Positions 29,532 through 55,218 of a stretch of 64,000 nucleotides of DNA are shown here, piece after piece. The DNA lies in NCBI GenBank assembly GCA_035541135.1, contig DATKNW010000043.1, forward strand, positions 17,755-81,754. The letters run 5' to 3'. The stretch's first letter is position 1; each line of letters begins with the position of its first letter. Position numbers and translations under genes: made by a program. The DNA is from Verrucomicrobiia bacterium. GTDB lineage: Bacteria; Verrucomicrobiota; Verrucomicrobiia; Palsa-1439. Under the pieces are notes generated by a model. It was not told where the DNA came from. It worked only from the letters and a program-made list of their open reading frames with translations, and made no database searches.

Positions 29532-29611
29532 GCCTCCCGCGGTCAGGATCATAAATACACTCTTACCCGGTGCGCCCCCCAGCGGCAAGACAAAGTCGCT
29601 CGCGAGACCTG

Positions 29612-35703: not shown

Positions 35704-35815
35704 GATACGAAAGCACTCCCCCCAATGCGACCGAATCCTAGCAGAAAGGACGGGGACTTGACAACTCAGTTGCCAGGTCCCCATCAACTTTGCGAATCGC
35801 GTTGCCGAGCGACAA

Positions 35816-36651
35816 CTACTGCTGCATCGTGCAATTGACGAGCTTGCAGTTCGCCACGCGATCCACCTGCCGGTTGCTGTAGCTATGGCACGTGGTCAGC
35901 GTCATCGCGGCGGTGTTGCCGTTGGAGTTGAACCCGCGCGCGCTGTTGCCGGCCGTGTTGTTGTGAGAGGTGCAACTCGTGTACGAATGCAGCACGTTGT
36001 TGGCGGGCGACTCCGCGGCTCCCATCTTGAAGCCGTCTCCATTGCCCGTCTTCCCCTGGGCAGACCCCATGCTGTAACACAGGCAGCCGCTGACGGCAAT
36101 CGGGCTGTCGGCGCCATAAAAGTCGAACCCGTCGTCGGAGTTCTGGTACGCCGTGCAATTGACGAATTGATTCCCCGCGCCCGTGCCGTTCTTGGCGGAA
36201 TATCCATCGGCGTTTCCACCCGAACTGTCGGCGTTGTTATAGGACGTGCATCCCGATAACACGTTGTTCTGCGCCGCCTTGGCCGAAATCTCAAAACCGG
36301 AATTGTGATTTGCGCTGGCGATGCAGGATGTGATCTTGCAGCCGGAGCCGAGGATCATGAAACCATGGTTCGCTCCGCTGACCGTGAGACTCTTCAGGGT
36401 GACTCCGCTGCCGCTCGATGCCACGGCGAATCCGTCCGATGTGCTGGACGTGAAGTTAAACGTCGCCGGTCCCGCGACGGTCACGCCGCTGGGCACGGTG
36501 ATCTTGCCGCTGACGCTGTAGGTGCCGGAACACTGGACGGTCGTTCCCGATGCGGCGTTTTGGATTGTGCTCCTGATATCGGCTCTTGCCACCGAACCGA
36601 TCAGCAAGATGGCCGACGTCGCCAGACTCACATATTTGCACTTGAGTGACA
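35816..36651 (-). CDS. Secreted right-handed parallel beta-helix repeat protein (pectate-lyase-fold), paralog 1.
   Basis: Signal peptide MSLKCKYVSLATSAILLIGSVARA. The mature protein is rich in G/S/T/N, with periodic N..GDGF / NADG / GDGFKMG turns and a conserved C-terminus ...CHSYSN...NC.LVNCTMQQ shared with the two paralogs. AAGGAG lies upstream. Confidence 0.6.
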
Positions 36652-37004
36652 TAACGAACATCTCCTTCCGGGTTTGTTGTTTGATCCCTGTCCCCTTGAC
36701 AGAAAAAAGAGGTGCTGAGGCGCGTTCCGCGGATGGTCTGATCTCCTTCCCAATATGGAACCTCGCTCTCAATGAAAGCTCGATAACGGGGGCTTCCTCC
36801 TAGCAGTTCCTGGGCGGGAAGTCAATCACCATGATTATTCTGCACCATTGCTTGAAAAACGCGCACGCGACCCCGAAGGAACCGGAGCCGCCGGCCAGGC
36901 CGGTCCCGTTCCGGGCGCAGACCATTCTCCGCTTGACGCCGGAGTCGCGAGAAGGAGTACTTACGGGCGATGCGGGAACACTCGACGAGGACTCCGGCCC
37001 CACG

Positions 37005-38669
37005 ATGAAGAATGCGTGGAAATCATCTGTCCCAAGCGGGGCGTTGCTCATCTTGATCACGGTGACGGCGTACTGGCCCGCGCTTTCCGGGAGATTCAAC
37101 TGGGATGACGACTGGTGGACGACAAGGATCTACGGATTGCTGGTCGGTTTCTCGGGTTTGCGGTCGATCTGGCTCGATCCGACCGCGATGCAGCAGTATT
37201 ACCCGCTCACGGGTACCAGCTTCTGCGTCGACTACCACCTCTGGGGCTTCCGGCCGCTGCCGTATCATCTTGAGAATGTTCTTCTGCACGCCGCCTCCGC
37301 CATCCTGCTCTGGCGCTTGTTGCGGCGACTGCAAGTGCCGGGCGCGTGGCTGGCAGGCGCCATCTTCGCCGTTCACCCGGTCGCGGTCGAATCGGTGGCT
37401 TGGATCACCGAGCGCAAGAACGTGCTCTCGCTTGTTTTCTACCTGGGCGCGCTGCTCGCCTACGGACGGTTCAGCTTCTTTTGGAAGGCCGAGAACAACC
37501 CGGCGGCCGGCGCTCCGCAACGCTGGTCCACGTATGCCTGGGCTCTTGTTCTCTTTGTCGCCGCGTTACTGGCCAAAGCCACGGCGTTTTCGCTGCCGGC
37601 GGTGATTCTGCTGATCGGCTGGTGGAAGCGCGGACGCATCCGGTGGAGGCCGGATGTCTTGCCGACCGCGCCATTCTTTGCAGCGGCCATCGGCTTCGGC
37701 TCGATAACCACCTGGTTGGAGAAGAACCATGTCGGAGCGAATGGCCCGGACTGGGTCCTTTCCTTTCCCGAGCGTTGCCTGGTTGCGGGGCGAGTCTTGT
37801 GGTTCTACTCCGGCAAGCTGCTCTGGCCCGCGAAACTCTGCTTCATTTACCCGCGCTGGCCGGTCGACCCCGGCTCCTGGTGGCAATGGTCATATCCGGT
37901 AAGTGCGGTTGGCGTCCTGACCGCACTTTGGTTGGCGCGGAAGCGGATCGGCCGCGGACCGGTGACGGCAGCGCTCTTTTTCGTCGGGACGCTCTTTCCG
38001 GTGCTCGGGTTCATGAACGGGTACTTCATGCGGTTTTCTTTCGTGTGGGATCACCTGGTTTATGTCTCCATGCTGGGGCTCATTGCCCTGGTGGCGGCGC
38101 TGGTGGCATGGACAGCCGAACGTCTCCGTGCCAAACCGGTTTTGGTTGCGCTCTCCGCCGCCCTGGTGCCGCTGCTCGCGTTCCTGACGTGGCGGGAATG
38201 CGGGAAATACGCCGATGTGGAAACGCTCTGGCGCGATACGTTGGCGAAAAACCCGGCCTGCTGGATGGCGCACTACAACCTGGGACAAATGTTGCAGATC
38301 TCGGGCAACACGGCCGAGGCGAAAGAGCATTATGAGCAGGCGTTGTATTTCAAGCCGGACTGCGACGAGGCCCTGAACAATCTGGCCTGGCTGCTGGGAA
38401 CGCTCCCGCCTGCGCAAGGCGGCGATCCCACCCGCGCCCTGACCCTGGCCCGACGCGCCTGCGAACTGACCAGCAATCGCGACCCGGATTCCCTGCCGGA
38501 TTCCCTCGACACGTTGGCCGTCGCGTACGCGGCCAACGGCCGGTTCGACGACGCCATCGCCACGACCCAGCAAGCCATCGCATTGGCGCGCGCGGGCGGA
38601 CAGGCAGAGTTGATCCGAAAAATGGAAAGCCGGCTGACGTTATATCGTCGCGGACTCGCCTACCACTGA
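37005..38669 (+). CDS. TMTC-like (GT105/DUF1736) membrane protein with C-terminal TPR repeats.
   Basis: First loop YWPALSGRFNWDDDWW, signature VHPVAVESVAWITERKNVLSLVFY, and a C-terminal TPR module ending ...LAVAYAANGRFDDAIATTQQAIALARAGGQ. Confidence 0.7.
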   Translation: MKNAWKSSVPSGALLILITVTAYWPALSGRFNWDDDWWTTRIYGLLVGFSGLRSIWLDPTAMQQYYPLTGTSFCVDYHLWGFRPLPYHLENVLLHAASAILLWRLLRRLQVPGAWLAGAIFAVHPVAVESVAWITERKNVLSLVFYLGALLAYGRFSFFWKAENNPAAGAPQRWSTYAWALVLFVAALLAKATAFSLPAVILLIGWWKRGRIRWRPDVLPTAPFFAAAIGFGSITTWLEKNHVGANGPDWVLSFPERCLVAGRVLWFYSGKLLWPAKLCFIYPRWPVDPGSWWQWSYPVSAVGVLTALWLARKRIGRGPVTAALFFVGTLFPVLGFMNGYFMRFSFVWDHLVYVSMLGLIALVAALVAWTAERLRAKPVLVALSAALVPLLAFLTWRECGKYADVETLWRDTLAKNPACWMAHYNLGQMLQISGNTAEAKEHYEQALYFKPDCDEALNNLAWLLGTLPPAQGGDPTRALTLARRACELTSNRDPDSLPDSLDTLAVAYAANGRFDDAIATTQQAIALARAGGQAELIRKMESRLTLYRRGLAYH

Positions 38670-38673
38670 AGCC

Positions 38674-40299
38674 ATGAGCCGAAGACAAACAGCTCCGCAC
38701 TCGGCGTCATCCAGCGGCGCTCCCCTGACAACGGTTCCGGTCGGATCGCACAACCATTGGGCGGCTGCTGGCGTCTGCCTGTTTCTCGTGGGCGCCATTT
38801 TCGTGGGGTTCGGCCAGACGCTCCGGTATGGATTCGTCGACTACGACGACGACGGATATGTGTACAAAAACCCGCACGTCATTCACGGCCTGGATTTGAA
38901 AGGAGTCGCGTGGGCGTTTACCCATAGCGTCATGGCCAATTGGCATCCACTGACCGTGATGTCGCACATGCTGGATTGCCAGGTCTATGGCCTCAACGCC
39001 GGCGGACACCATCTCACCAATCTCCTCCTCCATGCGGCTACCGCTGTTCTGTTGTTTCTGGTTTTGCGCCGGATGACACAGGTCCTGTGGCCCAGCGCGT
39101 TCGTGGCGGCGGTATTTGCCATCCATCCGTTGCGGGTGGAATCGGTGGCGTGGATCGCGGAACGCAAGGATGTGTTGAGCGGGCTGTTCTTCGTGCTGAC
39201 GCTCGGGGCTTATGTCCGCTACGTCTGTGCACCGCCGTCATGGGGCCGCTATCTGACGGTGGTCTTCCTTTTCACGCTTGGGCTGATGTCCAAACCGATG
39301 CTGGTGACCGTGCCGTTCGTGTTGTTGTTGCTGGACTACTGGCCGCTGAACCGGCGCGGCGCGACCAATCGCCTTTCGACATGGTGGAGGCTCCTTGTCG
39401 AGAAGATCCCGCTCTTCGCATGCTCATTTGCTCTATGCCTGGTGACATTTCTGGTTCAGCGAAAGGACACCGGGATTCCTTTCCCCCTGAGAATCAGCAA
39501 TGCTCTCGTATCGTATGTCGCCTATTGCGGACAGATGTTTTGGCCCGTGCATCTGGCCGTCTTGTATCCTTATCCAATCAACGGCTTGCCGACCGGGAGA
39601 GTCGTCCTGGCATCCGTGTTGTTGATTGTCGTCTCGCTGGGCGCGTTGTTCTGGAGGCGAAGCCGTCCATACTTCTTGATGGGCTGGCTGTGGTATCTGG
39701 GGATGTTGGCACCGGCAATCGGGGTGGTGGCACAGGCCGGAGCCCAGTCGCGCGCGGACCGTTACACCTATCTGCCGCAAATTGGTCTGTACATTCTTGT
39801 GACCTGGATGGCGGTTGAGCTGACCGCCTCGTGGCGAAGTCGCCGCTGGGTGTTGGGCACCAGTGCATTGGTCGTTCTGGCGGTCTTGATTGCTTGTGCC
39901 AGAGTGCAAACCGCCTACTGGCGCGATAGCCGATCGTTGTGGACCCACGCACTGGCCTGTACCACGGACAACAGCATCGCCGAAAATAACCTGGCCTGGA
40001 TCCTGGGGACACTCCCGCCAACCGAAGGCGGCGATCCTGTTCGTGCCATAACCCTGGCTCGACATGCGTGCGAGTTGACCGGCAACAGTGACGCGGACTC
40101 GCTCGACACACTGGCTGTCGCCTACGCGGCCAACGGCCGGTTCGACGACGCCGCCGAAACGACGCAAAAGGCCATTGCGTTGGCACGCGCGGACGGACAG
40201 ACAGCGCTGGCCGAAAAAATGGAGGCCCGGCTGGAGTTGTATCGCGGCCGGAATGCCTACCGCCCGCCCGCCGACGCAACGACGCAGGGCAACCCGTGA
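38674..40299 (+). CDS. TMTC-like membrane protein with C-terminal TPR repeats.
   Basis: YGFVDYDDDGYV, IHPLRVESVAWIAERKDVLSGLFF, and a C-terminal module nearly identical to the previous gene (LAVAYAANGRFDDAAETTQKAIALARADGQ). Confidence 0.7.
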   Translation: MSRRQTAPHSASSSGAPLTTVPVGSHNHWAAAGVCLFLVGAIFVGFGQTLRYGFVDYDDDGYVYKNPHVIHGLDLKGVAWAFTHSVMANWHPLTVMSHMLDCQVYGLNAGGHHLTNLLLHAATAVLLFLVLRRMTQVLWPSAFVAAVFAIHPLRVESVAWIAERKDVLSGLFFVLTLGAYVRYVCAPPSWGRYLTVVFLFTLGLMSKPMLVTVPFVLLLLDYWPLNRRGATNRLSTWWRLLVEKIPLFACSFALCLVTFLVQRKDTGIPFPLRISNALVSYVAYCGQMFWPVHLAVLYPYPINGLPTGRVVLASVLLIVVSLGALFWRRSRPYFLMGWLWYLGMLAPAIGVVAQAGAQSRADRYTYLPQIGLYILVTWMAVELTASWRSRRWVLGTSALVVLAVLIACARVQTAYWRDSRSLWTHALACTTDNSIAENNLAWILGTLPPTEGGDPVRAITLARHACELTGNSDADSLDTLAVAYAANGRFDDAAETTQKAIALARADGQTALAEKMEARLELYRGRNAYRPPADATTQGNP

Positions 40300-40319
40300 G
40301 ATGGAAGATTGGCGGGACG

Positions 40320-42176
40320 CTAGGGAAGCGGCACCGGTTTCGGAGGCGATTCCTTCCGCTGACGTTGCTGCAGATCTTCCAGGAGTTGTCGGCCCCCTTC
40401 CAAATCCGGCTTCAGGCGCAAGGCGGTCTCCACGTGCTCGATCGCCTCGGGTAATCGCTCCGGCACCCTGGACAATGCCACGCCCAGGTTCCAGTGGGCC
40501 TCGGCGTAATCCGGCCGGATGCGCAAGGCCGTTTCGATGTGGGTGATGGCCTCGGGCAACCGCCCGGGAACATCGATCAGCAGGTCCCCAAAATTGTTCT
40601 GTGTCTCCGCGCAATCCGGATCGTAGCGGAGCGCTGCCTCGAAATGCTCGATCGCCTCCGCCGTCCGACCGGGAATCCCGCCCAGAACCACCGCCAGGTT
40701 GCTGTGGGCTTCGGCATAATCCGGTTTGTACCGCAACGCCGTCTCAAACTGCTCAATCGCGTCCGGAGTTCGACCGGGAATATTGGCCAGGATGCAGCCC
40801 AGATTGCCGTGCCCCTCGGCAAAATCGGGCCGGTACCGAAGCGTTGTCTCCCACTCGTCGATCACTTCCTGCTGGCGGCCGGGAACACCGTTCAGGGCGT
40901 CTCCCAGATTGTAGTGAGCGATCCAGCTTGTCGGGTTGTGCGCCAGGGCGTCCCGATACAGCGTCTCCGCATCCCGAAAGATCCGACTGTGCCGCCACGT
41001 CAGCGCTCCCAGTATCGCCAGCAAACTCACCGCGAACACCGGCGCCGCTCGACGCGCGGCCCCTGGGAGTTTCTCCGCGAGCGAAGCCGCGCTCGCCGCA
41101 AACAGCACGATGATTCCCAAACAGGCCAGGTACTGCTGGTGGTCCCCGACCGGAGAAAACACGAACCAAACCACGTTGAAAAAGCCCGCCACCGGAAAGA
41201 GCGTTCCCGCAAAGATCAGCACCGCCGCCAGCGGGCCCGGGCTTCGCCGCGCCGCCCACGCCAACGCCGCCAGGGCAACGAGCACGGCGAGCGGGAATGC
41301 ATATTGCCAGGCTGCGCCGGGATCCACGGTCCACCGCGGGTAGATGAAGGTCAGGTTGACCGGCCACATCAGCTTGCCCAGATAAAACCAGAACGCGCGT
41401 CCCGCCACCAATCCGCGCTCGAGCCACGACAACGAGAAATCCCCGGGATGCGCCGCACAGCTTCGCCGTTCCAACCACGCGACCGGCAGGACGGCGGTCA
41501 CGCCCATCACAAACCATGGGAGCAACGGCCGCACGTCGTGGTTCCATTCGATCCGTCCCCGTTTCCACCAGATGATCACCAGCAACACCGCCGGCAGGGT
41601 GATCACCAGCGACTTGCTCAGCATCGCCAGGACAAACAATCCCAGCGCACCGGCATAGTCTCCCCGGTTGCGCTTCTCATCAAAGCGCAGGTAAACCAAA
41701 ACCGAAGCCAGGCCGAAGAAGACGGAAAGCGTGTTCTTTTGTTCCGAGATCCACGCCACCGATTCAACACAGACGGGATGAAGCGCATAGATGAAACCGG
41801 CCAGCCACGCCCCGGGCAACGCCAACCGACGCACGATCGCCACGAGAAGACAGGCCGATCCGGCGTGCAGCAGCACATTCGTCAGGTGATACCCCAGCAC
41901 GGCCTCACCCCACAACCGGTATTCCAGCCAGAACGCGGTGTGCAGAATCGGGTAATACTGGTGTGTCGCCCCGATCTTCGACCAAATCCGCCACAGACCG
42001 GCCAGCGACCGCAACGCCGGCGCGGTCACATGTTCCGTGTCGTCCGTGACGAAACCGCCGTGGAGGCACGGTTGGTAGGCCAGCACCGTCGCGCCGAATA
42101 ACAGCAACCCCAGCCCGATTTGTTTCAGGCGGCCCGTCTTAGAATTCGTCGCAGCGATGGATTGCCGCTCGTGCAT
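40320..42176 (-). CDS. TMTC-like membrane protein with C-terminal TPR repeats.
   Basis: YQPCLHGGFVTDDTEHV, LHPVCVESVAWISEQKNTLSVFFG, and a long C-terminal TPR array. Confidence 0.7.
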   Translation of the reverse strand: MHERQSIAATNSKTGRLKQIGLGLLLFGATVLAYQPCLHGGFVTDDTEHVTAPALRSLAGLWRIWSKIGATHQYYPILHTAFWLEYRLWGEAVLGYHLTNVLLHAGSACLLVAIVRRLALPGAWLAGFIYALHPVCVESVAWISEQKNTLSVFFGLASVLVYLRFDEKRNRGDYAGALGLFVLAMLSKSLVITLPAVLLVIIWWKRGRIEWNHDVRPLLPWFVMGVTAVLPVAWLERRSCAAHPGDFSLSWLERGLVAGRAFWFYLGKLMWPVNLTFIYPRWTVDPGAAWQYAFPLAVLVALAALAWAARRSPGPLAAVLIFAGTLFPVAGFFNVVWFVFSPVGDHQQYLACLGIIVLFAASAASLAEKLPGAARRAAPVFAVSLLAILGALTWRHSRIFRDAETLYRDALAHNPTSWIAHYNLGDALNGVPGRQQEVIDEWETTLRYRPDFAEGHGNLGCILANIPGRTPDAIEQFETALRYKPDYAEAHSNLAVVLGGIPGRTAEAIEHFEAALRYDPDCAETQNNFGDLLIDVPGRLPEAITHIETALRIRPDYAEAHWNLGVALSRVPERLPEAIEHVETALRLKPDLEGGRQLLEDLQQRQRKESPPKPVPLP

Positions 42177-42283
42177 CTGCTGAAGATTCCATGATACCAA
42201 CTCGCCTCCCCCGGCGAAACAATCGTTTCTCCGTCTCGCGCGCCGCCGCGACGGAACGAGGCGCGACACCGGGGTGGATCCGT

Positions 42284-42326
42284 ATCGAAAAAAACGGGGA
42301 CCCGGCCACCGGGCTGCCGGGTCCCC
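42284..42326 (-). terminator. Intrinsic terminator shared by the beta-helix paralogs (copy A).
   Basis: Perfect 11-bp stem GGGGACCCGGC / GCCGGGTCCCC with a 9-nt loop, followed on the minus strand by TTTTTTT. It lies about 50 bp downstream of the stop of beta-helix gene 42378..43193. Confidence 0.7.
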
Positions 42327-42377
42327 GAAACCTCCGCGCATCCACTACGGCGGCGCGGAACCACGCAACGCACGACG

Positions 42378-43193
42378 CTACTGCTGCATCGTGCAGTTGC
42401 TCAGCACGCAATTGCCAAGGACGTCCTTGTTCTTGTTGCTGTAGCTGTGGCAGGACGTGAGCTTGATCGCGGCGGTGTTGTGGTTCGTGTCGAATCCGCG
42501 CGCGGTCGAGCCGGCCGTGTTGTTGTGGGCCGTGCAACTGCTGTATGTATGCGCCACGTTGTACTGGCCGCCCATCTTGAACCCATCGCCATTGCCCTGC
42601 GCTCCATTGTAACTGCCGTTGCTGTACGCCTGGCAGCCGCTGACGGTCACTGGAGCGGTCGCCTCGTAGAAATCGAAGCCGTCGTCCGAGTTGTTGTACG
42701 AAATGCAACTCGAGAACGAAATGCCCGACCCGGATGCACTCTTGACGCCGAACCCATCGGCATTGCCGCCGCCGGGATCCGCATTGCCATAGGCGGTGCA
42801 GCCCGAGATCGTGGCGCTGCTCGCCCCGTCACAGTTGATGGCCGTGTCGTGGTTCCCCGTCGCCGTGCAGTTGACGACCTTGCAGCCGGACGCGTAAATA
42901 TTGGCGGCACGATTGGCCCCCTTGATCGTGAGGCTTTGCAGTGTCGCGTTGGCTCCCTTCATGGTGAAACCGTCGCGCGTGGAGTCGTTGAAGGTGAACG
43001 TCGCCGGCCCCTTGACCGTTACCCCGGCCGGCACCTTCATGGGACTGACTGTATACGAGCCGGAACATTGCACCGTGGTTCCGGACGTGGCATTTTGAAT
43101 CGTGTCGCGAATATCGGCTCGGGTCACTGAGACCCCCAACACGGCGACAGACGCGATTACACCCAGGCACATCTGAACTTTTCCGATCTTCAT
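42378..43193 (-). CDS. Secreted right-handed parallel beta-helix repeat protein, paralog 2.
   Basis: Signal peptide MKIGKVQMCLGVIASVAVLGVSVTRA. It shares the repeat architecture of 35816..36651 and the ...NCTMQQ C-terminus. Confidence 0.6.
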   Translation of the reverse strand: MKIGKVQMCLGVIASVAVLGVSVTRADIRDTIQNATSGTTVQCSGSYTVSPMKVPAGVTVKGPATFTFNDSTRDGFTMKGANATLQSLTIKGANRAANIYASGCKVVNCTATGNHDTAINCDGASSATISGCTAYGNADPGGGNADGFGVKSASGSGISFSSCISYNNSDDGFDFYEATAPVTVSGCQAYSNGSYNGAQGNGDGFKMGGQYNVAHTYSSCTAHNNTAGSTARGFDTNHNTAAIKLTSCHSYSNKNKDVLGNCVLSNCTMQQ

Positions 43194-43329
43194 ATCGTCT
43201 CTTCCGTCCTGTTCGTTCCTGTCATTATCATTGGTTTCAGCCCCGCCACGATCGACAGGAAGCACATGACGGGAATGGTCGCTTTTCGCATCGGAACTTC
43301 TCGCACCCGCTGATGCGAAGCGAACGGCT

Positions 43330-43371
43330 GCGATAAACTCGGGGACCCGGCAACCGAGCTGCCGGGCCCCC
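43330..43371 (-). terminator. Intrinsic terminator shared by the beta-helix paralogs (copy B).
   Basis: Homologous to copy A with a 10/11 stem (GGGGACCCGGC / GCCGGGCCCCC). It lies about 55 bp downstream of the stop of gene 43427..44233. Confidence 0.5.
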
Positions 43372-43426
43372 GATACTTCCATGCACTAGTTACGGCCGCG
43401 TGGATTCACCACGCCATGCGCCGTCG

Positions 43427-44233
43427 TTATTGCTGCATCGTGCAGTTGCTCAACGTGCAATTACCCAGCACGTCCTTGTTCTTGTTGCTATAGCTATGGC
43501 AAGAAGAAAGCGCGATCTTCGCGGTATTGTGGTTCGTGTCGAACCCGCGCGCGGTCGAGCCGGCCGTGTTGTTGTGGGCCGTGCAACTGGTGTACTTATG
43601 GGCCTGATTGTAGCTGCCGCCCATCTTGAACCCGTCGCCATTGCCCGTCTTCCCGTTGTAACTGCCGTTGCTGTACGCCTGGCAGCTGCTGACCGTGACC
43701 ACGCCGTTGGCTCCGTAGAAATCAAAGCCGTCGTCGGAGTCGCTATACGCAATGCAACCCGAGAACGAGATCCCCGAGCCGCAGCCATCCTTGACGCCGA
43801 AGCCGTCGGCGTTTCCACCCGAGCTGTCCGCGTTGTCGTACGAGGTGCAGCTCGAGACCGTGCAACTGCTCGCGCCATCGAGATCGATGCCGGTGTCGTG
43901 GTTCCCGGTCGTTGTCAACGACGTGAACTTGCAGCTGGATCCCTTGCAGTACACACCATGTTTCGCCGCTTTGATCGTCAAGCTTTGAAGCGTGACACTG
44001 CTGCCACTGATCGAGAATCCGTCGTTGCTGCTGCTATTGAAGTTGAATGTGGCCGGACCCTTCACCGTCACGCCGGACGGCACAACAATCTTGCTCACGG
44101 TGTATGAGCCAGAACATTGGACGGTGGTTCCCGACTTCGCATTCTGGATCGTGTCGCGAATGTCGGCCTTCGCCACGGAACAAAGCAACAAGGCGGACAT
44201 CGCCACAGCTACATATTTACAGCTCGATGACAT
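43427..44233 (-). CDS. Secreted right-handed parallel beta-helix repeat protein, paralog 3.
   Basis: Signal peptide MSSSCKYVAVAMSALLLCSVAKA with AGGAGA upstream. It is closest to paralog 2 and ends ...NCTLSNCTMQQ. Confidence 0.6.
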   Translation of the reverse strand: MSSSCKYVAVAMSALLLCSVAKADIRDTIQNAKSGTTVQCSGSYTVSKIVVPSGVTVKGPATFNFNSSSNDGFSISGSSVTLQSLTIKAAKHGVYCKGSSCKFTSLTTTGNHDTGIDLDGASSCTVSSCTSYDNADSSGGNADGFGVKDGCGSGISFSGCIAYSDSDDGFDFYGANGVVTVSSCQAYSNGSYNGKTGNGDGFKMGGSYNQAHKYTSCTAHNNTAGSTARGFDTNHNTAKIALSSCHSYSNKNKDVLGNCTLSNCTMQQ

Positions 44234-44796
44234 AGTCCTATCTCCTCTTACTGTTTGTGTTTGGTTGTTTTTCACCCTGCCTCCCTCAGCAGGGGAAAGG
44301 CTGGAGCGAGGCTGGCGCCGCGCTGAAAAAAGTTGTGCGAGCTGGAATGATATTCTCGGGGAACCCGCGGCGGGGCTGAGAAAAAGCCGTGGCAGGACGT
44401 TAATGCCCGACTGATGGGGAATGTCGAGTAACGTGTACGTGGTCCCTTACAGGACCCCACTGGACACTTACATCCCACTTCTCCCGCTCGTGAAAAAGCC
44501 TCGTCGGAAAACGCTTGCAGATTGAGAGAACCACGGCGCAAAGTCAACGCGGGTAGTGTATCATTTTGAATCGGCATCGGCCAAAGCTACGACTTATTCC
44601 TTGTCTCAAACGTGGTCTATCGAGCCCGCTTCCATCGCGGGCGTGCCGCGCGGATTTTTAGCTGGACAATCCTGAACCTCTGCTGCAGTGAGCCGCGAAC
44701 CAACCCAACGCATCTCGGTTGAAATTTTCATGATCGATCAACCGGTGGATTCACGGAGGAAACACTCCCCGCATTCTCCGCCGGCAACTGCTGCCA

Positions 44797-46791
44797 TCAA
44801 GGCTTGGGCGGATTCGCCGCGTTGATGGACTCGTCATACGCGCGTCCGGCGCGATACAATTGGAGCCGACCCGCGATCTTTGCCGCCAATTGCGGCTGCC
44901 CGCCCGAACGCGCAAGCTCCACGCCTTTTTGCGCAACTCGGACAGCCTCATCGAACCGGCCGGCAGCGGCATAGGCGGCCGCGAGCGTGTCGAAATACGC
45001 CGGTTCGGTCTCCCCGGTAAGTTCACAAGCCCGCTTGGCAAGGGTCACAGCCCGAGCCGGGTTGCCACCTTCGGCTGATGGAACTGTCGCCAGCAGCCAG
45101 GCCAGGTTATTGTATGCATCCGTGTCGTCGGGCTTGATCTGGATCGCCCGTTCATAGTGACGGATCGCCTCCCCGATCTTCCCCGACTGCCACAAAGCAA
45201 CCGCCAAATTGTTGTGCGCGTCAACGTAGTCGGGGTCCAGCCGCACTGCTTGTTCGTAATGGGCAATTGCCTCGTCCAGCCGGCCCATCCGCCACAGGGC
45301 CAGCCCCAGATTGTAATGGGCCTCGGGGTAATCGGGCCTCGCCTGAAGCGCCTGCTCATATTGACCGATTGCCTCCCGGGTCCTGTCGGCTCGTTCCAGG
45401 GCGAGCCCCAAATTGTAGTGTGCCTCGGGATAATCCGGCTTGATCTGCAACGCTTGTTGGAGATGCGCAATGGCTTCTTCGACCCGGCCCGCTTGTCCCA
45501 GGGCGCCTCCGAGGTTATTGTGCGCCAACCAATTGTCGCGGGTCACCTGCAAGGTGTGGCCAAACAACGTCTCGGTGCTTCTCCAATACCCAACCTGTAC
45601 CCTGGACAACACGGCGCAGGCCGCCAACACCGCGACTACCCCGAACCACATGGTCGCCCTCAAGCTCCCGCGCTCGATCCTGCCGTATGGCAGGCTCCAA
45701 CACATCATCACAAGCAGCCCAACCATGGGAAGATACGTGTAGCGGTCCGCCATCGATTGTCCGCCAACCTGCACCAACCCAATGACCGGCACCAGCATTC
45801 CCAAATACCAGAACCAACCCGTCACAAGCCACGGCTCCCGACGCGACCGCCAAATCACCACGGTGGTTGCCGCTGCCAGCGCGAGCCCGGCCCCGATCAC
45901 GGCGGCTGCAGACCGCTCGGGGCGGAACGGGTAAAACACAGCCTGGTCCAACGGCCAGAACGTTTTGGCCACATACCGCACGTACGCGAGCAGGGCGTTT
46001 GCCGCCCGCGTTTCGAAGGGCAGCTTCGTCAGGGACACCACCGCTCCACCGCCTCGTTGCGCCCAAACGGTTATCGCGCACGAGACGGCAGCCAGCGCGA
46101 AAAACGGCAGCTTCTCGGTCACCAATCGGTTGACTGGCACGGTTGGTCTCTTGTCGACAGCTCCCTTCGCCCAGCGTGTTCGCCCCAGCGGCCAATAATC
46201 CAGAAGCAACAACACGCACGGCAACGTGACCACCATCGGCTTGGCCAGCAGTCCCAAGCCATACAGTCCCATGGTAAGCCCGTATCGGGCGGGTGTGGGC
46301 CGATCAACGTAGCGGATGTATGCATACACGGTCAGCATCCCAAAGCATGTGCTGAGTACGTCCTTGCGTTCCGCCACCCAGGCGACCGATTCCACATGCA
46401 GCGGATGCAGCGCAAACAGGGCCGCCACACACGCGCTCCGCCATGGCGCGCCCGTCATGCGCAGCCATACGGCAAACAGCAACAGCGTGTTGGCCGCGTG
46501 CAGCAGCACGTTCACCAGATGAAACCCGCCGGCCCACGTCCCAAACATCTCGCGATCCAGCATCAACGAGACCCAGGTTAACGGATGCCAGTTCGCCGCC
46601 TGGCGCGAGGTGAATGCCCACATCAGGTTCTGCGGCGTCAATCCTCCCTGGACCCGTACGCTCTCGGTCACGTACCTGTCGTCGTCGTACCGGACGAAGC
46701 CGGCATGGAGGACCGGCCAGTAGACGACCGCGATGGCTGCCGCCAGACAGAGACCGATGAGCCGATTCCGCTGCTGGGAGGTTGACGTCAT
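44797..46791 (-). CDS. TMTC-like membrane protein with C-terminal TPR repeats.
   Basis: VYWPVLHAGFVRYDDDRYV and LHPLHVESVAWVAERKDVLSTCFG. This is the last gene of a four-gene minus-strand TMTC array. Confidence 0.7.
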   Translation of the reverse strand: MTSTSQQRNRLIGLCLAAAIAVVYWPVLHAGFVRYDDDRYVTESVRVQGGLTPQNLMWAFTSRQAANWHPLTWVSLMLDREMFGTWAGGFHLVNVLLHAANTLLLFAVWLRMTGAPWRSACVAALFALHPLHVESVAWVAERKDVLSTCFGMLTVYAYIRYVDRPTPARYGLTMGLYGLGLLAKPMVVTLPCVLLLLDYWPLGRTRWAKGAVDKRPTVPVNRLVTEKLPFFALAAVSCAITVWAQRGGGAVVSLTKLPFETRAANALLAYVRYVAKTFWPLDQAVFYPFRPERSAAAVIGAGLALAAATTVVIWRSRREPWLVTGWFWYLGMLVPVIGLVQVGGQSMADRYTYLPMVGLLVMMCWSLPYGRIERGSLRATMWFGVVAVLAACAVLSRVQVGYWRSTETLFGHTLQVTRDNWLAHNNLGGALGQAGRVEEAIAHLQQALQIKPDYPEAHYNLGLALERADRTREAIGQYEQALQARPDYPEAHYNLGLALWRMGRLDEAIAHYEQAVRLDPDYVDAHNNLAVALWQSGKIGEAIRHYERAIQIKPDDTDAYNNLAWLLATVPSAEGGNPARAVTLAKRACELTGETEPAYFDTLAAAYAAAGRFDEAVRVAQKGVELARSGGQPQLAAKIAGRLQLYRAGRAYDESINAANPPKP

Positions 46792-46818
46792 CTCAGTGAA
46801 TCACCATGCTTCCTTCCC

Positions 46819-48897
46819 TCAATGGTTCGGGGAGTCACCTGCTGCTCCCGTTTCGCGGTCGGCGTGTCCATCCCGGTAGAATTGAAGCCGTGCCTCGATT
46901 TTTTCGGCAAGCCCCGGCTGTCCGGCAGCGCGGGCAAGCTCGACCGCCTTCTGCGCCGCGGCGACAGCGTCTTCAAATTGGCCGGTGGCAGCGTAGGCCT
47001 GCGCCAGTGTATCGACAAAAGCGGGTGACTGATAGCCCGTCAGTTCGCAGGCATGCCGCGCCAGTGACACGGCGCGAACCGGGTCGCCACCTTGCGCCGG
47101 TGGGAGTGTCGCCTGGAGCCGGGCGAGGTTATGGCACGCCGTGGGATAGTCCGGATTGATGCGCACGGCCTGTTCCAAATGCCGCATCGCCTCCTGCGCA
47201 TTGCCGGCGTGCATCAAGGCGATGCCGAGATTATTGTGGGCCTCGGCAAGACCGGGGTTGAGTTGCAGCGCCCGCTCCCAATGCGGAATCGCTGCCGGCA
47301 CGTGGCCCGTCTGTGCCAGCGCCTCGGCCAGATGATCGTGCGTTTCCGCCGAGTCGGGATCAATTTGTAGCGCCCGCTCGTAATTGCGGATGGCGTCTTC
47401 GAGGTTGCCGGCCCGCGCCCAGGCAAGTCCCAGGTTATAGTATGCTTCGGCATAACCCGGGTTGACCTGCACCGCCTGCTCGATGTGCGCAATCCCCTCC
47501 TCCACTCGCCCCGCCCGCACCAACATGATGCCGAGGTTGTTGTGCGCCTGCGGATCGTCGGGCTTGATTCGCAGCACCCGCTCGAACTGGGTCTCGGCTT
47601 CCGCGCTCCGACCTGTGTTCTGCAACAGGATCCCCAGATTGTTGCGCGCAATCCACGCGCTCGGATTCCTTGCCAGCGTATCGCGCCAGAGGGTCTCGAC
47701 GTCCCGGAATGTGCCTGCATGGCTCCAGGTCAACACCCCGGCCAGTGCCAGCACGACCAGTCCCGCCACCATGCCAACCCGTTCACCCAATCGTCCTGTT
47801 CGCCCGTAGATTTTTGCCCCCGCGGCCGACACCAACGCAATGAAGCCCGCACTGGCCAAGTACTGAAAGTGATCCGCCACAAATGAGTAGCGGAAATAAT
47901 ACACGTTGAATATCCCCAGCACCGGCAGCAGCGCTGTCGCGAAGTAGCCCAATCCGAAAATGCCCGCGCGGGCCCAGCCCCGCTCCCGGCGCCACCACAG
48001 AATGACGGCGACGCCCAGCACCCCGGCCAGTGGCAGCCACGACCAGAGCGAGTTTGCCGCCGCCCATCGTGGGTATACGAACGTCAGTTGCTCGGGCCAC
48101 ACCAATCTCCCCGCGTAAAACCAAAGCGCTTTGCCGGCAATCACCAGCCGATCCGCTGCGGTCAGGGACCAGTCCGCCGTGCCCTCGCGTACGATCTGCC
48201 CGTGCTGCTCGACGATGGCTGTGACCGACAGCAGCAGTGCAAACGCGAAAAACGGCGCCACCCGAACCGCGTCCACCCGCCGCAGGTGTCGCCGGTTCCA
48301 CCACACGCACAGCAACATCGACAACGGCAACACGACCGTCGACGGTTTGCTGAGCATGGCGGCCAGACCTGACAGGACTGCCAGCCAGTACCAAGGACGT
48401 TTTCCGTCGGCGTCAAACCGGAGAAAGAACAGCAGCGCCAGGAAAAAGAAGATGCCCGATTGCGTGTTCTTCAGCTCGGTGACCCAGGCCACCGATTCCA
48501 CGTTGACCGGGTGCAGCACCCAGAGTCCGGCGGCAAACCACGCCGCCGGCACCCGCAGCCGGCGCAGAAGCAAATAGACCAGGAAACCATTAATCGCATG
48601 GAGCGCGACGTTGACCATGTGATACGGCATCGGACTCAGTCCCCACAACCGCCGCTCCACCCAGAAAGTCGTCAGCGTCAGCGGATAGTACCGGGACACG
48701 GACAGGGACGACCAGATCATCCGCAGCCCGTGCGGCGCGGTCATCGCGGGATTCTGAGTCAGATGGTCGTCATCGTCCCAGATGAAGCCCGCCTGCCACA
48801 CGGGCTGGTAGGCTGCGAAGGCGAGCACCACGAGCGCCACAGCCACAAGCCACGTGCGATGGGGCGACTGCTCCCTGTCTGCCGGGGTCGACACCAT
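46819..48897 (-). CDS. TMTC-like membrane protein with C-terminal TPR repeats.
   Basis: YQPVWQAGFIWDDDDHL and LHPVNVESVAWVTELKNTQSGIFFF. The ATG overlaps the upstream gene's stop (ATGA) and GGGAGGAAG lies upstream. Confidence 0.7.
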   Translation of the reverse strand: MVSTPADREQSPHRTWLVAVALVVLAFAAYQPVWQAGFIWDDDDHLTQNPAMTAPHGLRMIWSSLSVSRYYPLTLTTFWVERRLWGLSPMPYHMVNVALHAINGFLVYLLLRRLRVPAAWFAAGLWVLHPVNVESVAWVTELKNTQSGIFFFLALLFFLRFDADGKRPWYWLAVLSGLAAMLSKPSTVVLPLSMLLCVWWNRRHLRRVDAVRVAPFFAFALLLSVTAIVEQHGQIVREGTADWSLTAADRLVIAGKALWFYAGRLVWPEQLTFVYPRWAAANSLWSWLPLAGVLGVAVILWWRRERGWARAGIFGLGYFATALLPVLGIFNVYYFRYSFVADHFQYLASAGFIALVSAAGAKIYGRTGRLGERVGMVAGLVVLALAGVLTWSHAGTFRDVETLWRDTLARNPSAWIARNNLGILLQNTGRSAEAETQFERVLRIKPDDPQAHNNLGIMLVRAGRVEEGIAHIEQAVQVNPGYAEAYYNLGLAWARAGNLEDAIRNYERALQIDPDSAETHDHLAEALAQTGHVPAAIPHWERALQLNPGLAEAHNNLGIALMHAGNAQEAMRHLEQAVRINPDYPTACHNLARLQATLPPAQGGDPVRAVSLARHACELTGYQSPAFVDTLAQAYAATGQFEDAVAAAQKAVELARAAGQPGLAEKIEARLQFYRDGHADRETGAAGDSPNH

Positions 48898-50957
48898 CAC
48901 TTCCTCCCTGAAATCTGCGAGCTGTTTGCACCAGTCTCACGGTAGACGCGTCCGTCACGATAAAGCTGCAACCGGGTCTCGATCTTCTCCGTCAACTGCG
49001 GCTGTCCGTCGGCGCGGGCGACTTCCTCGGCCTTTTCCCCGGTGACAATCGCTTCCTTGAATCGGCCGGCCGCCGCGTAGGCGACTGCGAGTGTATCGAG
49101 ATAGGACGGTTCCCGATTCGTGCTGAGTTCACAGGCTCGCTCGGCCAGGGTCACCGCTTGAGCCGGGTCGCCCGTCTCCGCCGCGAGGTGCGTCGCCAGC
49201 ACCCAGGCCAGATTGTTGCATGCCTCGGCGTAGTCGGGCTTCGTCTGTAGCGCCTGCTCCCAATGCCCGATTGCCTGCCGGGTCCGGCCTTCTTGCCACA
49301 GCACCAGCGCCAGATTGTTGTGGGCCTCGGCAAAATCGGGGTCGATGAGCACCGCCCGTTCCCAATGCGCGATCGCCTCGGGCACACGATTCGCGTGCGC
49401 CAGAGTGTTCGCCAGGTTGTTGTGCGCCTCGGCGCAATCCGGCTTGATTTGCAGGGCCCGCTCGTAGTCGGCGATCGCCTCCGGCGTTTCCCCCATCTGC
49501 GACAGGGCCAATGCCAGATTGTTATAGGCCTCGGCGTACTCGGGTTTGAAGCGCAGGGCCAGCCTGTACTGGGCGATCTCCTCCTGCGTTTTGCCCGCGT
49601 GTCCCAGGGCAAGCCCCAGATTGTAATGTGTCTCGGCATAATCCGGTTTGATCCGCAGGGCCTCCTCGTAGTGCTGCATTGCTTCCTGCACCTGACCCGA
49701 CTGCCACAGGCCCAGCCCGAGATTGTTGTGGGCCACCCAGCAGCGCGGGTTCTTCGCCAGCGTGTCCCGCCAGAGCATTTCATCGCTCTGGTAAACACCG
49801 CTTCGTTGCCAGGCGGCAGTTCCCAGCGCGGCCACAACCGCCGCGCTCGCCAACGGCGCAACAAATCGTCTCCGCTCGCCCAACCGACTGCCAACCTTCT
49901 CCCCCGCGGCGACCACCAAAGCAATGACGCCGATGATCGAGTAGTATTGCCAGTGATCGGCCACCAATGAGAACCGGTAAAAACCCTGATCGATGAACCC
50001 CAACACGGGAAACAGCGTCGCCAGGAAATACCCCGATGCGAACAGGCAGGGCCGTCCCCACGTTTGCCGTTTCCACCAGAACAGCGCCAGACCGCCGACC
50101 AGAATCGCGCCGGGTACGTAGGAAACAAGTCGGGACGGATCGATCTCCCACTTCGGATAGATCATCGTCAGGTTCACCGGCAGGATCGTCTTGTACAGGT
50201 AGAACCACGGTACCCAACCCGCCCCGGCCAACCGAACCAGGAATCCGGCCCCTCGGGCGGCGGACCGTTCCATCGCCCGATTGTACTGAAACCACACCGT
50301 CACCAATCCCAAGGCCAGCGAGAGGATAAAAAACGGGATGGTATACAGGAGGTCCTGCCACCGCACTCGTCCGCGCCGCCACCACGCGCATCCCAACAAC
50401 ACCACCGGCAACATGACCACGGCGCTCTTGCTGAGCGCGGCCAGGACGAATGCGATCAGCGACAGTCCGTACCATCTCCAGCGGTTGTCGTCGTCAAATC
50501 GGAGATACAGAAGGATCGCCACGACGTAGAACAACATCGAGAGCGTATTCTTCTGTTCGCTGATCCAGGCGACGCTGGCCACGTTCACCGGATGGACGGC
50601 AAACACCAGTGCCGCCACAAATGCTCCCGGAGTTTTCAGGCGCCGCAAGATCATCCATATCAGGACGGCGTCGACGGCGTGCAGCAACACGTTGACCACG
50701 TGGTACCCGATGGGATTGCCACCCCAGAGCCGCCACTCCAGCCACCACAGGCTCCACGTCATCGGGTAATAATCCGCCGCGTCGGTCGTGCACCAGAACC
50801 GGTACAGTCCGTCGCTGGTTTTGATCAGCCGATTGGTCGTGATGAAATCGTAATCGTCGAACAGAAACCCGCCGCGCATGGCCGGGATGTAAACCGCCAT
50901 TGTCAATGCCATGATCAAAAGCGCGCCCGCGCCCAGCGATTTCCACGCGGTCTTCAT
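48897..50957 (-). CDS. TMTC-like membrane protein with C-terminal TPR repeats.
   Basis: VYIPAMRGGFLFDDYDFI and VHPVNVASVAWISEQKNTLSMLFY. Confidence 0.7.
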   Translation of the reverse strand: MKTAWKSLGAGALLIMALTMAVYIPAMRGGFLFDDYDFITTNRLIKTSDGLYRFWCTTDAADYYPMTWSLWWLEWRLWGGNPIGYHVVNVLLHAVDAVLIWMILRRLKTPGAFVAALVFAVHPVNVASVAWISEQKNTLSMLFYVVAILLYLRFDDDNRWRWYGLSLIAFVLAALSKSAVVMLPVVLLGCAWWRRGRVRWQDLLYTIPFFILSLALGLVTVWFQYNRAMERSAARGAGFLVRLAGAGWVPWFYLYKTILPVNLTMIYPKWEIDPSRLVSYVPGAILVGGLALFWWKRQTWGRPCLFASGYFLATLFPVLGFIDQGFYRFSLVADHWQYYSIIGVIALVVAAGEKVGSRLGERRRFVAPLASAAVVAALGTAAWQRSGVYQSDEMLWRDTLAKNPRCWVAHNNLGLGLWQSGQVQEAMQHYEEALRIKPDYAETHYNLGLALGHAGKTQEEIAQYRLALRFKPEYAEAYNNLALALSQMGETPEAIADYERALQIKPDCAEAHNNLANTLAHANRVPEAIAHWERAVLIDPDFAEAHNNLALVLWQEGRTRQAIGHWEQALQTKPDYAEACNNLAWVLATHLAAETGDPAQAVTLAERACELSTNREPSYLDTLAVAYAAAGRFKEAIVTGEKAEEVARADGQPQLTEKIETRLQLYRDGRVYRETGANSSQISGRK

Positions 50958-50972
50958 CGTGTTTCCCGCCGT

Positions 50973-52661
50973 CTACCGCGACGGCTGCAGCCGCGCCAGC
51001 TCATTTCGCGCCTCGACGTAGTCGGGTTCGATTTGGAGCGCCTCCTGGAAATGCCCGATCGCCTCCTGATTCCGTCCCGCTTGCTCCAACGCGACTCCCC
51101 AATTGTACTGGGCGTCGGCGAAATCGGGCTTGAGCCGCACCGCCTCCTCCAACTGCTTGATTCCTTCGTCGGTCCGGCCCGTCTGCACCAGAACGCCTCC
51201 CAGGTTGCTGTGCATCGTGGCGGAGTCCGGTTTGAGCCGCACCGCCTCCTTGAGATGGGCGATGGCTTCTTCGACCCGTCCCACTTCGAATAATGAATTG
51301 CCCAGGTTGTTGTGCGCCTGCGCATAGTCGGGGTCGAGCTTCAGGGCTCGCTCGTAACAGTCAATCGCCTCCTTGATCTCGCCCTTTTGTGCGAGAGCTT
51401 CCCCGAGATTGAAGTGCGCCACGGACGCGCCCGGATTTCTTGTCACGTTGTCCCACCAGAACGTCTCATTGGTTGCATACACGCATGTGCGTTTCCACGT
51501 CGCCGCGCCCAGCGTCAGGAACACAGCCGCCCCCACCAGCACTTCAGCCCATCGGCGTCTTTCGCCCAGGCGGCGGCAAATCCCCTCGCCAGCAGCAACG
51601 ACCAGCGCAATGATTCCGATGATGGAATAGTACTGCCAGTGGTCGGCCACCGCCGAGTATTCATAGAAGCCTTGATCGAAGAACCCGAGCACCGGGAAGA
51701 GCATGGCCACGAAACAACCAAACCCGAACAGCAGCGGTCGTCCCCAGCTCTCGCGTTTCCACCAGAAGACAACAAAGCACGCGATCCAGAGCACGCCCGG
51801 CACGTAGCAGATCCATCGGGAGGCGTCGATGTGCCATTTGGGATAGATCAGCATCAGGTTCAGTGGCACGAGCGTTTTGCCAAAGTAAAACCATGGAGCC
51901 CACCCGGCGGCCGCCAGACGAACCGCAACCCTCCTGTTCGTGATCGCCTCCTCCAAGACCTGATGGTACTGGAACCAAACGGTTGCCAATCCCAGGACGA
52001 GAGAAAGCAGGAAGAATGGCGCGCACCGCAGGAGATCTTTCCACCGTATCCGATGGCGCATCCACCAGACGCATCCCAGCAGCACCACCGGAAGCATCAC
52101 CGCCGCGCTCTTGCTGAGCAATGCGAGGAGGAAAGCCATCAGCGACAGACCGTACCAAGGCCACCGGTCTGATTCATCGAATTTCAGATACAGCAGGACC
52201 GCCACCGCGGAAAACATCATCGACAGCGTGTTCTTCTGTTCGCTGATCCAGGCGACGGTGGCGACGTTGACTGGATGAATCGCAAACGCCAGCGCCGCCA
52301 ACCATGCCCCCGAAATCTTCAGGCGCCGCAAGATCATCCACACCAGGACGGCGTTGGCCGCGTGCAGTAAGATGTTGACCACGTGGTAGCCCGTGGCGTT
52401 GGAGCCCCAAGCCCGCCACTCCAGCCACCATAGACTCCACGTCAGCGGATAATAATCCGGAGCTTCCGTCGTCAGCCAGAACCGGTGGAGTCCATCATGA
52501 GCTTTCATCATCGGGTTGTCCGTGATGAACAGAGCGTCATCCCAGATAAACCCGCCGCGCATGGCCGGGATGTAGACCACCATGGTCAACACAACAATCA
52601 AAACCGCGCCGGTGCCCACTGACTTCCACGCGCTTCTCGGTGTGTCCTTCGATCCCTTCAT
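50973..52661 (-). CDS. TMTC-like membrane protein with a shorter C-terminal TPR region.
   Basis: VYIPAMRGGFIWDDALFI and IHPVNVATVAWISEQKNTLSMMFS. This is the first gene of the four-gene minus-strand array and is 77% identical in its N-terminal region to 48897..50957. Confidence 0.7.
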   Translation of the reverse strand: MKGSKDTPRSAWKSVGTGAVLIVVLTMVVYIPAMRGGFIWDDALFITDNPMMKAHDGLHRFWLTTEAPDYYPLTWSLWWLEWRAWGSNATGYHVVNILLHAANAVLVWMILRRLKISGAWLAALAFAIHPVNVATVAWISEQKNTLSMMFSAVAVLLYLKFDESDRWPWYGLSLMAFLLALLSKSAAVMLPVVLLGCVWWMRHRIRWKDLLRCAPFFLLSLVLGLATVWFQYHQVLEEAITNRRVAVRLAAAGWAPWFYFGKTLVPLNLMLIYPKWHIDASRWICYVPGVLWIACFVVFWWKRESWGRPLLFGFGCFVAMLFPVLGFFDQGFYEYSAVADHWQYYSIIGIIALVVAAGEGICRRLGERRRWAEVLVGAAVFLTLGAATWKRTCVYATNETFWWDNVTRNPGASVAHFNLGEALAQKGEIKEAIDCYERALKLDPDYAQAHNNLGNSLFEVGRVEEAIAHLKEAVRLKPDSATMHSNLGGVLVQTGRTDEGIKQLEEAVRLKPDFADAQYNWGVALEQAGRNQEAIGHFQEALQIEPDYVEARNELARLQPSR

Positions 52662-52841: not shown

Positions 52842-52918
52842 TGGCGCTCCCGGGGCGATTCGAACGCCCGACCTGCGGTTTAGGAAACCGACGCTCTATC
52901 CATCTGAGCTACGGGAGC
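52842..52918 (-). tRNA. tRNA-Arg (anticodon CCT).
   Basis: The reverse complement folds as a cloverleaf. The acceptor stem is GCTCCCG/CGGGAGC, the D-stem GCTC/GAGC, the anticodon stem TCGGT/ACCGC with loop TTCCTAA (anticodon CCT), the T-arm GGGCG-TTCGAAT-CGCCC, the discriminator G, and CCA is encoded. Confidence 0.8.
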
Positions 52919-55139: not shown

Positions 55140-55218
55140 AATCAAGCCCGCCGAGTCATTTGGCTATCGCGTTCTCCTTCGTCCCGAAATGAGCGAACGA
55201 TCAACCCCGACGCTTTCG

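Follow-up and report, generated by a model that had tools for sequence, protein, structure and literature searches.

Why should eight paralogous membrane proteins that resemble the TMTC O-mannosyltransferases be encoded among three small secreted beta-helix proteins? The question is raised by a 64,000-nucleotide stretch of DNA from a Verrucomicrobiia bacterium (contig DATKNW010000043.1), called the window here, in which the membrane proteins are named T1–T8 and the beta-helix proteins B1–B3. TMTC1–4 (CAZy GT105) are eukaryotic protein O-mannosyltransferases of the endoplasmic reticulum that act on cadherin-type domains, and the first-pass annotation of the window took the T and B genes for enzymes interleaved with their acceptors. 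Our answer, tentative and held with somewhat less than even confidence, is that the region encodes a Verrucomicrobiota-specific, periplasm-facing module for the maturation and O-glycosylation of B, a secreted lyase-type protein of family PL9. Two further conserved proteins, C and D, would belong to the same module.

All eleven T and B open reading frames (ORFs) named in the first-pass annotation are present where it placed them. T1–T8 are indeed paralogs, with pairwise BLASTP identities of 25–60% (E 5e-25 to 0); T1 shares 25–29% identity with the remaining T proteins, and T7 and T8 are 60% identical. Each protein is composed of an N-terminal domain of about 400 residues with many hydrophobic helices, followed by an array of tetratricopeptide repeats (TPRs). 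The fold of T1–T8 is GT-C plus TPR. T1 (17884–20136, Met start at 17935, plus strand), the outlier among the paralogs, lies outside the main cluster and carries about nine TPRs. T2 (36831–38669, likely start 37005, plus strand) is divergent from B1, and T3 (38674–40299, plus strand), situated 4 nt downstream of T2, ends in a short C-terminal TPR/cap segment. T4 (40320–42341, minus strand), with about six TPRs, lies downstream of B2. The other four genes form a run on the minus strand that begins with T8 (50973–52661, five TPRs) and continues through T7 (48897–50957) and T6 (46819–48900) to T5 (44797–46791, five TPRs plus a cap). The description of this run as one translationally coupled operon stands in part: the genes all point the same way and are separated by 15, −4 (or −1) and 27 nt, and an operon is plausible, but an overlap exists at the T7/T6 junction only, where the start of T6 overlaps the stop codon of T7.

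C-terminal TPR matches are found in all eight T proteins, in T3 marginally (E 7e-5) and as a remnant array only. The AlphaFold model of T5 (AF2; pLDDT 89.8, pTM 0.85) contains 11 long hydrophobic helices, which correspond to 11 predicted transmembrane (TM) helices, with the TPR helices beginning at residue ~406. The eight paralogs and 36 family members all have, without variation, the first-loop F...DD motif (D36 and D37 in T5 numbering). The HP[LV].VESVAW motif ascribed to every paralog is exact in six of the eight, but T7 has VASVAW and T8 has VATVAW. The wider T family comprises at least 8000 matches, mostly from Verrucomicrobiota, in which tandem paralog arrays are common; its members are annotated by NCBI as 'tetratricopeptide repeat protein' and by JGI sometimes as 'protein O-mannosyl-transferase'. 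Separately, a C-terminal module of ~110 residues caps the TPR arrays of T2, T3, T5, T6 and T7 (for example at 40000–40299 and 44797–45130) and is missing in T1, T4 and T8; its motif reads NNLAWLLAT.P.A.GGDP.RAV.LA.RACELTG...DTLA.AYAA.GRF.DA......A..LA...Q..L...I..RL.LY. After the membrane domain, T3 consists almost solely of this cap module.

The name TMTC-like is borne out by homology over the whole N-domain. For the profile comparisons, the TMTC N-domain alignment was rebuilt from the supplement of PMC7801869; against it, hhalign aligns the T family over 375 columns (99.9%, E 2e-36). With E values of 1e-32 to 2e-44, the T-family hidden Markov model (HMM) recognises the N-domains of human and fly TMTCs; it gives no match to an ArnT fragment, and the TMTC HMM matches T1–T8 at E 9e-14 (T1) to 6e-22. 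TMTC1–4 and T have in common 11 TM helices and, after these, a TPR array, which in T would be periplasmic, together with the loop-1 DD, the loop-1 Y-x-P-L-T, HP..(T/V)E.VA..(G/E)R.(D/N), the M4 Lys and, in this loose form, (E/D)(R/H)xxY. The further claim that HP..VESVAW is a signature of DUF1736 had to be given up. DUF1736 is the TM7–TM8 loop of TMTC (PMC7801869), and the motif aligns instead with TMTC HPIHTEAVAG..GRAD in TM3/EL2. The Pfam model of DUF1736, PF08409, gives no match at E ≤ 10 in any of the eight N-domains, as compared with E < 1e-30 for the human TMTCs, and is absent from the precomputed Pfam lists of 120 T homologs; the corresponding region of T is still alignable by hhalign, but divergent. 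Pfam and NCBIfam searches of the T N-domains return PMT_2 and noise and nothing further, with PMT_2 above the Pfam cutoff in T4, T7 (E 4e-11) and T8 (E 4e-8).

Compared with TMTC, differences exist in several motifs. The predicted metal-ligand Glu of KE(T/Q)xxT (M4) is not kept in T, which has an invariant Lys followed by P/S/A, nor is the predicted metal-ligand Asp of DW (M5), in place of which an invariant YP is found. In the M2 motif SHKSYRP, the His-Lys is missing and the [YW][YH]P[LV]T part is kept. The M7 motif ERxxY appears as (D/T)RYxY in T1, T3 and T5 and as DHxxY in the other five, with the Tyr invariant. Since the predicted metal ligands are replaced, the M2 His-Lys is absent and the M7 Arg is kept in three paralogs only, the T proteins form, judged by sequence, a separate bacterial branch within the TMTC clade and are not orthologs. 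A phmmer search of the PDB sequences with the T7 N-domain gives no match, and neither a sequence search nor the top structural matches yielded a solved TMTC structure. In the searchable literature no paper describing a characterised bacterial TMTC-type or GT105 enzyme, or O-glycosylation in Verrucomicrobiota, was found, in agreement with the first-pass statement that such enzymes are uncharacterised; the sole analogue found was TfpW.

The three B proteins are encoded on the minus strand: B1 (35816–36772; about 278 residues from ~36652), B2 (42378–43382; 271 residues from 43193) and B3 (43427–44275; 268 residues from 44233). As proposed, they are paralogous (54–73% identity) and secreted, with Sec-type signal peptides ending in AxA-D. 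Each has 12–14 Cys, a mature core of ~245 residues and a conserved C-terminal L-x-N-C-T-M-Q. The idea that they are Ser/Thr/Asn-rich beta-helix acceptors captures the secreted beta-helix, but they are not merely that: they are predicted PL9 lyase-type enzymes in their own right. Pfam finds Beta_helix in B, and Pel9A-like_beta_helix lies above its cutoff in B2 and B3 and just below it in B1 (23.8 vs 25.2). A 17-member B-family profile matches the PL9 structures of Dickeya Pel9A (1RU4, E 2e-32) and the BT4170 rhamnogalacturonan lyase (5OLQ, E 6e-15). All 17 members share, without exception, the motifs NADGF, NSDDGxD and GNGxGxKMG and the residues D143, D167/D168, D171 and K203 (numbering of P0001, 100% identical to B3). 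These motifs align to NADGF, NSDDGFD and GNGxGFK of Pel9A, which hold the calcium-site Asp residues and the catalytic Lys. The Ca-1 Asp triad is located on coils 5–6 and the catalytic Lys on coil 7, with the +24/+28 spacing of Asp202/226/230 in PpPel9a. B1–B3 are, on this alignment, minimal lyases of the PL9 type whose active site appears to be intact. Assignment as orthologs of NCBIfam PelN or PelX was rejected, as the matches are weak and score far below the equivalog cutoffs.

The composition of B supports the acceptor idea in one respect. Ser and Thr make up 20–26% of B1–B3, and across the B family their share is moderately raised over generic PL9 domains (21.7% vs 16.3%). Each protein also has 5–8 N-x-S/T sequons, but their density is generic for PL9 (1.8 per 100 residues in the B family vs 2.0 in generic PL9 catalytic domains), and the Asn content likewise matches. 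Such sequons are irrelevant to O-mannosylation and cannot serve as a hint of it, and a reading of them as N-glycosylation sites was dropped as uninformative. The T5–B3 spacer (44276–44796), 520–560 nt in length, contains no convincing ORF; a 101-residue ORF there has a third-position G+C (GC3) of only 0.54, and in a related locus (L002) the gene caller placed a 101-residue ORF between two B genes.

Two further genes, which the first-pass annotation did not mention, accompany B. C (34462–35787, likely start 35703, minus strand) lies directly downstream of B1; its product begins with a TM anchor, which a disordered linker joins to a HEAT-like alpha-solenoid with invariant Trp residues. It is Verrucomicrobiota-specific, without a Pfam match and with homologs all annotated 'hypothetical', and the generic HEAT-like fold does not allow a specific function to be assigned. 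D (32887–34404, plus strand) is a tandem FKBP-type prolyl isomerase with a signal peptide, predicted to be periplasmic, in which FKBP_N and FKBP_C occur twice (Pfam FKBP_C E 1e-30). In the window, B1–C stands between D and the divergent T2–T3 pair, and B3–B2 is followed by T4.

The first-pass annotation had named co-distribution of the beta-helix and TMTC-like genes as the test of its proposal, and the two are co-distributed. The B family has 251 matches, all in Verrucomicrobiota. From other Verrucomicrobiota, 22 loci whose B homologs are close (47% identity or more; 21 of the loci are non-redundant) were compared with 59 generic PL9 loci. Of the 21, 15 have T N-domains no more than 10 kb from B; of the 59, none has. 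The 59 are a weak control since they are mostly from other phyla, with two Opitutaceae/Opitutus loci that have no T genes. The linked T genes are mostly 0.1–4 kb from B on the same strand, in at least three gene orders, and the linkage is held at ~50% B identity across Opitutia-type and Verrucomicrobiae-type genomes and also in neighbourhoods without glycoside hydrolases (GHs). These several gene orders and GH-free neighbourhoods argue against simple inherited synteny. T2 orthologs (~65% identical) stand beside B genes in L002, L004, L006 and L012; T4 orthologs (59–71% identical) directly follow B in L002 and L011 and lie upstream, in T-T-B order, in L006. Three of the six loci without T are contigs ending within ~1 kb.

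C and D share in this linkage. C adjoins B in 16 of the 21 loci. A 4-nt overlap of the C stop with the start of T is present in L002 (and in L003, its duplicate), L005, L008, L017 and L020, counted as four independent loci. A D homolog is present in 14 of the 21, in the orders B-C-D(−)-T or B-C-T-D(−). The conserved set across the 21 loci is B, C, D and T only, other called neighbours being unrelated and variable, and it includes no polysaccharide synthase, flippase, Wza/porin, outer-membrane export or sugar-nucleotide pathway gene. No paper describing the conserved B-C-D-T module was found. In another Verrucomicrobiota genome (L082, 10001–20331; 586-kb contig), four T-type genes stand with GH57, a GalT-like gene, glycogen synthase and a separate PMT_2-only protein, and no B, C or D gene lies within 10 kb of them.

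How the four components might act together can be outlined as follows. T1–T8 would be inner-membrane GT-C transferases with the catalytic DD in the first periplasmic loop and the TPR array in the periplasm, transferring a sugar from a polyprenyl-phosphate donor onto Ser/Thr of exported proteins; as T is bacterial, this donor would be a bacterial polyprenyl-phosphate sugar. B1–B3 would be preferred clients, exported by Sec and folded with the help of the tandem isomerase D. The anchored HEAT-like C and the TPR arrays would hold B at the membrane, where it would be O-glycosylated before release, and released B would cleave a uronate-containing polysaccharide as a calcium-dependent beta-elimination lyase. 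The main difference among the T paralogs is the number of TPRs, and these paralogs may have different acceptor or donor specificities. All four components would face the periplasm, given the signal peptides found and the membrane topology that we infer.

Several lines of evidence favour this maturation and O-glycosylation module. TMTC, PMT and TfpW all act on proteins, and TfpW offers the precedent of a transferase gene immediately adjoining the gene of its protein substrate, pilA (bioRxiv 10.1101/2020.04.19.049825). The conserved set includes a protein foldase, D, and no polysaccharide synthase or export genes. The B–T linkage relative to the generic PL9 loci, the adjacency of C to B and the C–T stop/start overlaps argue for one functional unit. 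A protein client is indicated because D is a folding catalyst and not a glycan enzyme, and no other protein of the module than B is both soluble and exported; that B itself is the acceptor is suggested by its raised Ser and Thr content.

Besides the weakness of the generic PL9 control, a series of observations weighs against this module. Given enough flanking sequence, L018 and L021 have B-C-D without T, and L009 has B alone. The T genes that follow B-C elsewhere form their own clade in a neighbour-joining tree, which rules out that this clade is represented in the window, having no member among T1–T8; moreover, C is not followed by a T gene in the window. The T family is far larger than the B family, and T arrays also occur without B, so most T proteins must have other acceptors. 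The complete PL9 active site of B is needless for a mere acceptor and fits a B that acts on a T-made glycan equally well. Finally, as the TMTC metal ligands and the M2 His/Lys are replaced, the mechanism and donor of T may differ from those of TMTC, and the sugar need not be mannose.

The alternative that survives best, although we consider it unlikely, is a partnership in glycan processing. By analogy with ArnT, Emb and Aft, which act on lipids and polysaccharides, periplasmic GT-C proteins of the T type would build or decorate an envelope or extracellular uronate glycan, the TPR arrays and C would scaffold the polymer, and B, in the manner of AlgL, PelA, PgaB and RbmB, would trim, release or clear it. 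Since B is a PL9 lyase with an invariant calcium site and catalytic Lys, the link could indeed join an enzyme to a glycan and not to a protein substrate. A periplasmic lyase or hydrolase together with a TPR scaffold is usual in synthase-dependent exopolysaccharide systems (PMC8829089, PMC9384988, PMC9734138, PMC12993940). Furthermore, an invariant Y-x6-P-x7-P in the predicted periplasmic loop 4 of the T family resembles the proline motif Y-x6-P...P in periplasmic loop 4 of TfpW, which is common to EmbC and linked to chain-length control (bioRxiv 10.1101/2020.04.19.049825). However, the conserved neighbourhood offers no synthase, flippase, Wza/porin or sugar-nucleotide gene for such a polymer, the conserved isomerase D points to a protein client, and the closest sequence relatives of T, the TMTCs, act on proteins (PMC7801869).

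It is quite improbable, in our estimation, that T and B have no direct biochemical link, B being ordinary secreted pectate/rhamnogalacturonan lyases and T a generally expanded envelope family, brought together by inherited synteny or co-regulation in one lineage. This would agree with a window rich in plant-polysaccharide enzymes (GH44, GH3, GH94, GH31, GH95 and two GH51), with PL9 being a pectin-lyase family, with the very large T family whose arrays occur elsewhere without B, and with the linked loci all coming from one phylum. It accounts poorly for a linkage that persists at ~50% B identity in rearranged orders, in GH-free neighbourhoods and in both Opitutia-type and Verrucomicrobiae-type genomes. 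Moreover, B is a distinct minimal clade of 270 residues (generic PL9 median, 654), T is lacking in the two Opitutaceae/Opitutus control loci, and the C–T start/stop overlaps and B–C adjacency indicate a co-translated functional unit. That T proteins are not transferases at all but TPR-bearing membrane scaffolds or chaperones with lost catalysis, tethering or delivering B and other exported proteins, is very improbable: K[P/S/A] and YP do stand for KE and DW at the TMTC metal-ligand positions, the His/Lys of SHKSYRP is missing and five of the eight have His for the phosphate-binding Arg of ERxxY, but these ligand assignments derive from modelling and not experiment (PMC7801869), PMT_2 passes the Pfam cutoff in three T proteins, and the DD, M4 Lys, M7 Tyr and ~20 other positions are invariant in 36 diverse members, as is typical of a maintained active site.

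What is already known here is the T family under its TMTC/PMT-like annotations and, well established, the PL9 lyases. What the window would add is the enzyme–substrate link between T and B, a link that we infer and that offers a concrete, testable bacterial entry to TMTC-type acceptor recognition. In its fullest form, which is doubtful, the module would constitute a dedicated bacterial TMTC-type O-glycosylation pathway with a PL9 beta-helix client, a HEAT-like adaptor translationally coupled to the transferase in relatives, a private FKBP foldase and eight paralogs with diversified specificities. TMTC1–4 are disease-linked human O-mannosyltransferases; their bacterial T homologs are abundant, give high-confidence models and have a genetic tie to one specific partner that is small and soluble. 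With them, the recognition of acceptors, the identity of the donor and the part played by the TPRs could become testable at Escherichia coli scale. If the module is real, it would be the first bacterial model of TPR-based TMTC recognition of beta-strand-rich folded domains. The B-C-D-T set also defines a minimal PL9 lyase clade and represents an uncharacterised, lineage-wide part of the envelope or secretion biology of Verrucomicrobiota, which are abundant in soil and peat. If T and B are instead unlinked, the value shrinks to a well-annotated example of paralog expansion.

The T/B cluster is set between plant-polysaccharide genes on both sides, in a window of ~62% G+C. One flank is a run of GH44, GH3, GH94, GH31 (with a PA14 domain) and GH95 genes (20380–31834, minus strand), a combination that fits xyloglucan or cellodextrin breakdown, and the other flank holds two GH51 arabinofuranosidase genes (53055–56808, minus strand). 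The single Rfam match in the window is a tRNA gene (52845–52918, minus strand) that precedes the T8–T5 run, ~180 nt upstream of where T8 starts, and is not relevant to the cluster. A promoter and terminator scan of the window likewise yielded nothing relevant, promoter-like sites being no commoner than in shuffled sequence. Downstream of the cluster lie an NAD-dependent sugar epimerase/dehydratase (60632–61636), a YdjC-like carbohydrate deacetylase (61662–62387) and a DUF3568 lipoprotein-like gene (62509–62922), with possible sugar-modifying functions. No polyprenyl-phosphate-mannose synthase gene was identified among the subset of window ORFs scanned.

Upstream of T1, further arrays of polytopic membrane proteins are found. 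Five tandem paralogs on the plus strand (7911–9533, 9518–11077, ~11080–12636, ~12640–14195 and ~14190–15724) are 35–51% identical to one another and conserve an acidic motif in the first loop, [AG]D[GS]D then W/H; they have no Pfam match and may be a further GT-C-like family expanded beside the T cluster. A sigma-54-dependent response regulator (15732–17129, minus strand; receiver, AAA+ and Fis-type helix-turn-helix) is situated between this array and T1 and could control either the array or the T1 side. Four consecutive polytopic membrane genes (1572–3203, 3238–4821, 4818–6332 and 6366–7598) lie on the minus strand, the first two being 38% identical, with sub-threshold matches to PMT_2 (E 4e-4) and a TMEM260-like model (E 2e-3). 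TMEM260 is the third eukaryotic O-mannosyltransferase family. In total, the window may contain ~17 GT-C-like genes. AT skew is strong (up to ±0.2) at 2001–14000 and 36001–42000, and its sign follows the coding strand of the membrane-protein arrays, probably reflecting the T-rich Leu/Phe codons of polytopic proteins.

Among known systems, the exopolysaccharide pairs AlgL/AlgK, PelA/PelB and PgaB/PgaA, as well as RbmB, resemble the window in that the gene of a glycan-cleaving enzyme lies beside that of a TPR-bearing envelope protein. However, the TPRs of the window are fused to a GT-C transferase and not to an outer-membrane porin, and conserved synthase and export genes are lacking. Membership in the synthase-dependent systems (Alg, Pel, Pga, Bcs) is ruled out, as the GT2 synthase and the TPR-linked porin are missing from the conserved set. 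The PMT family (GT39: yeast Pmt1/2/4 and actinobacterial Pmt) depends on polyprenyl-phosphate-mannose to O-mannosylate exported proteins, among them secreted enzymes that degrade glycans. T resembles this family in that the PMT_2 model passes for T4, T7 and T8, but the sequence similarity is marginal, and PMT proteins have a luminal MIR beta-trefoil inserted in a loop where T proteins have a C-terminal TPR array.

By architecture and motifs, TfpW may also be likened to T. This pilin O-arabinofuranosyl transferase of Pseudomonas aeruginosa has 11 predicted TM helices, a periplasmic-loop DDx and a periplasmic C-terminal TPR (bioRxiv 10.1101/2020.04.19.049825), so that the two have in common the GT-C plus TPR layout, a DD-type loop motif, the Y-x6-P motif of loop 4 and a gene beside that of a partner. 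Unlike T, TfpW is a single gene and not a paralog array, and its substrate is a type IV pilin rather than a beta-helix enzyme. On the lyase side, B differs from the generic PL9 proteins in its size of ~270 residues, and from Pel9A and BT4170 in that its family occurs only in Verrucomicrobiota and has its place in the B-C-D-T neighbourhood. Compared with TMTC1–4, the bacterial T proteins are massively expanded in tandem paralog arrays, and the genes linked to theirs encode a PL9 lyase, a HEAT-like protein with a membrane anchor and an FKBP isomerase.

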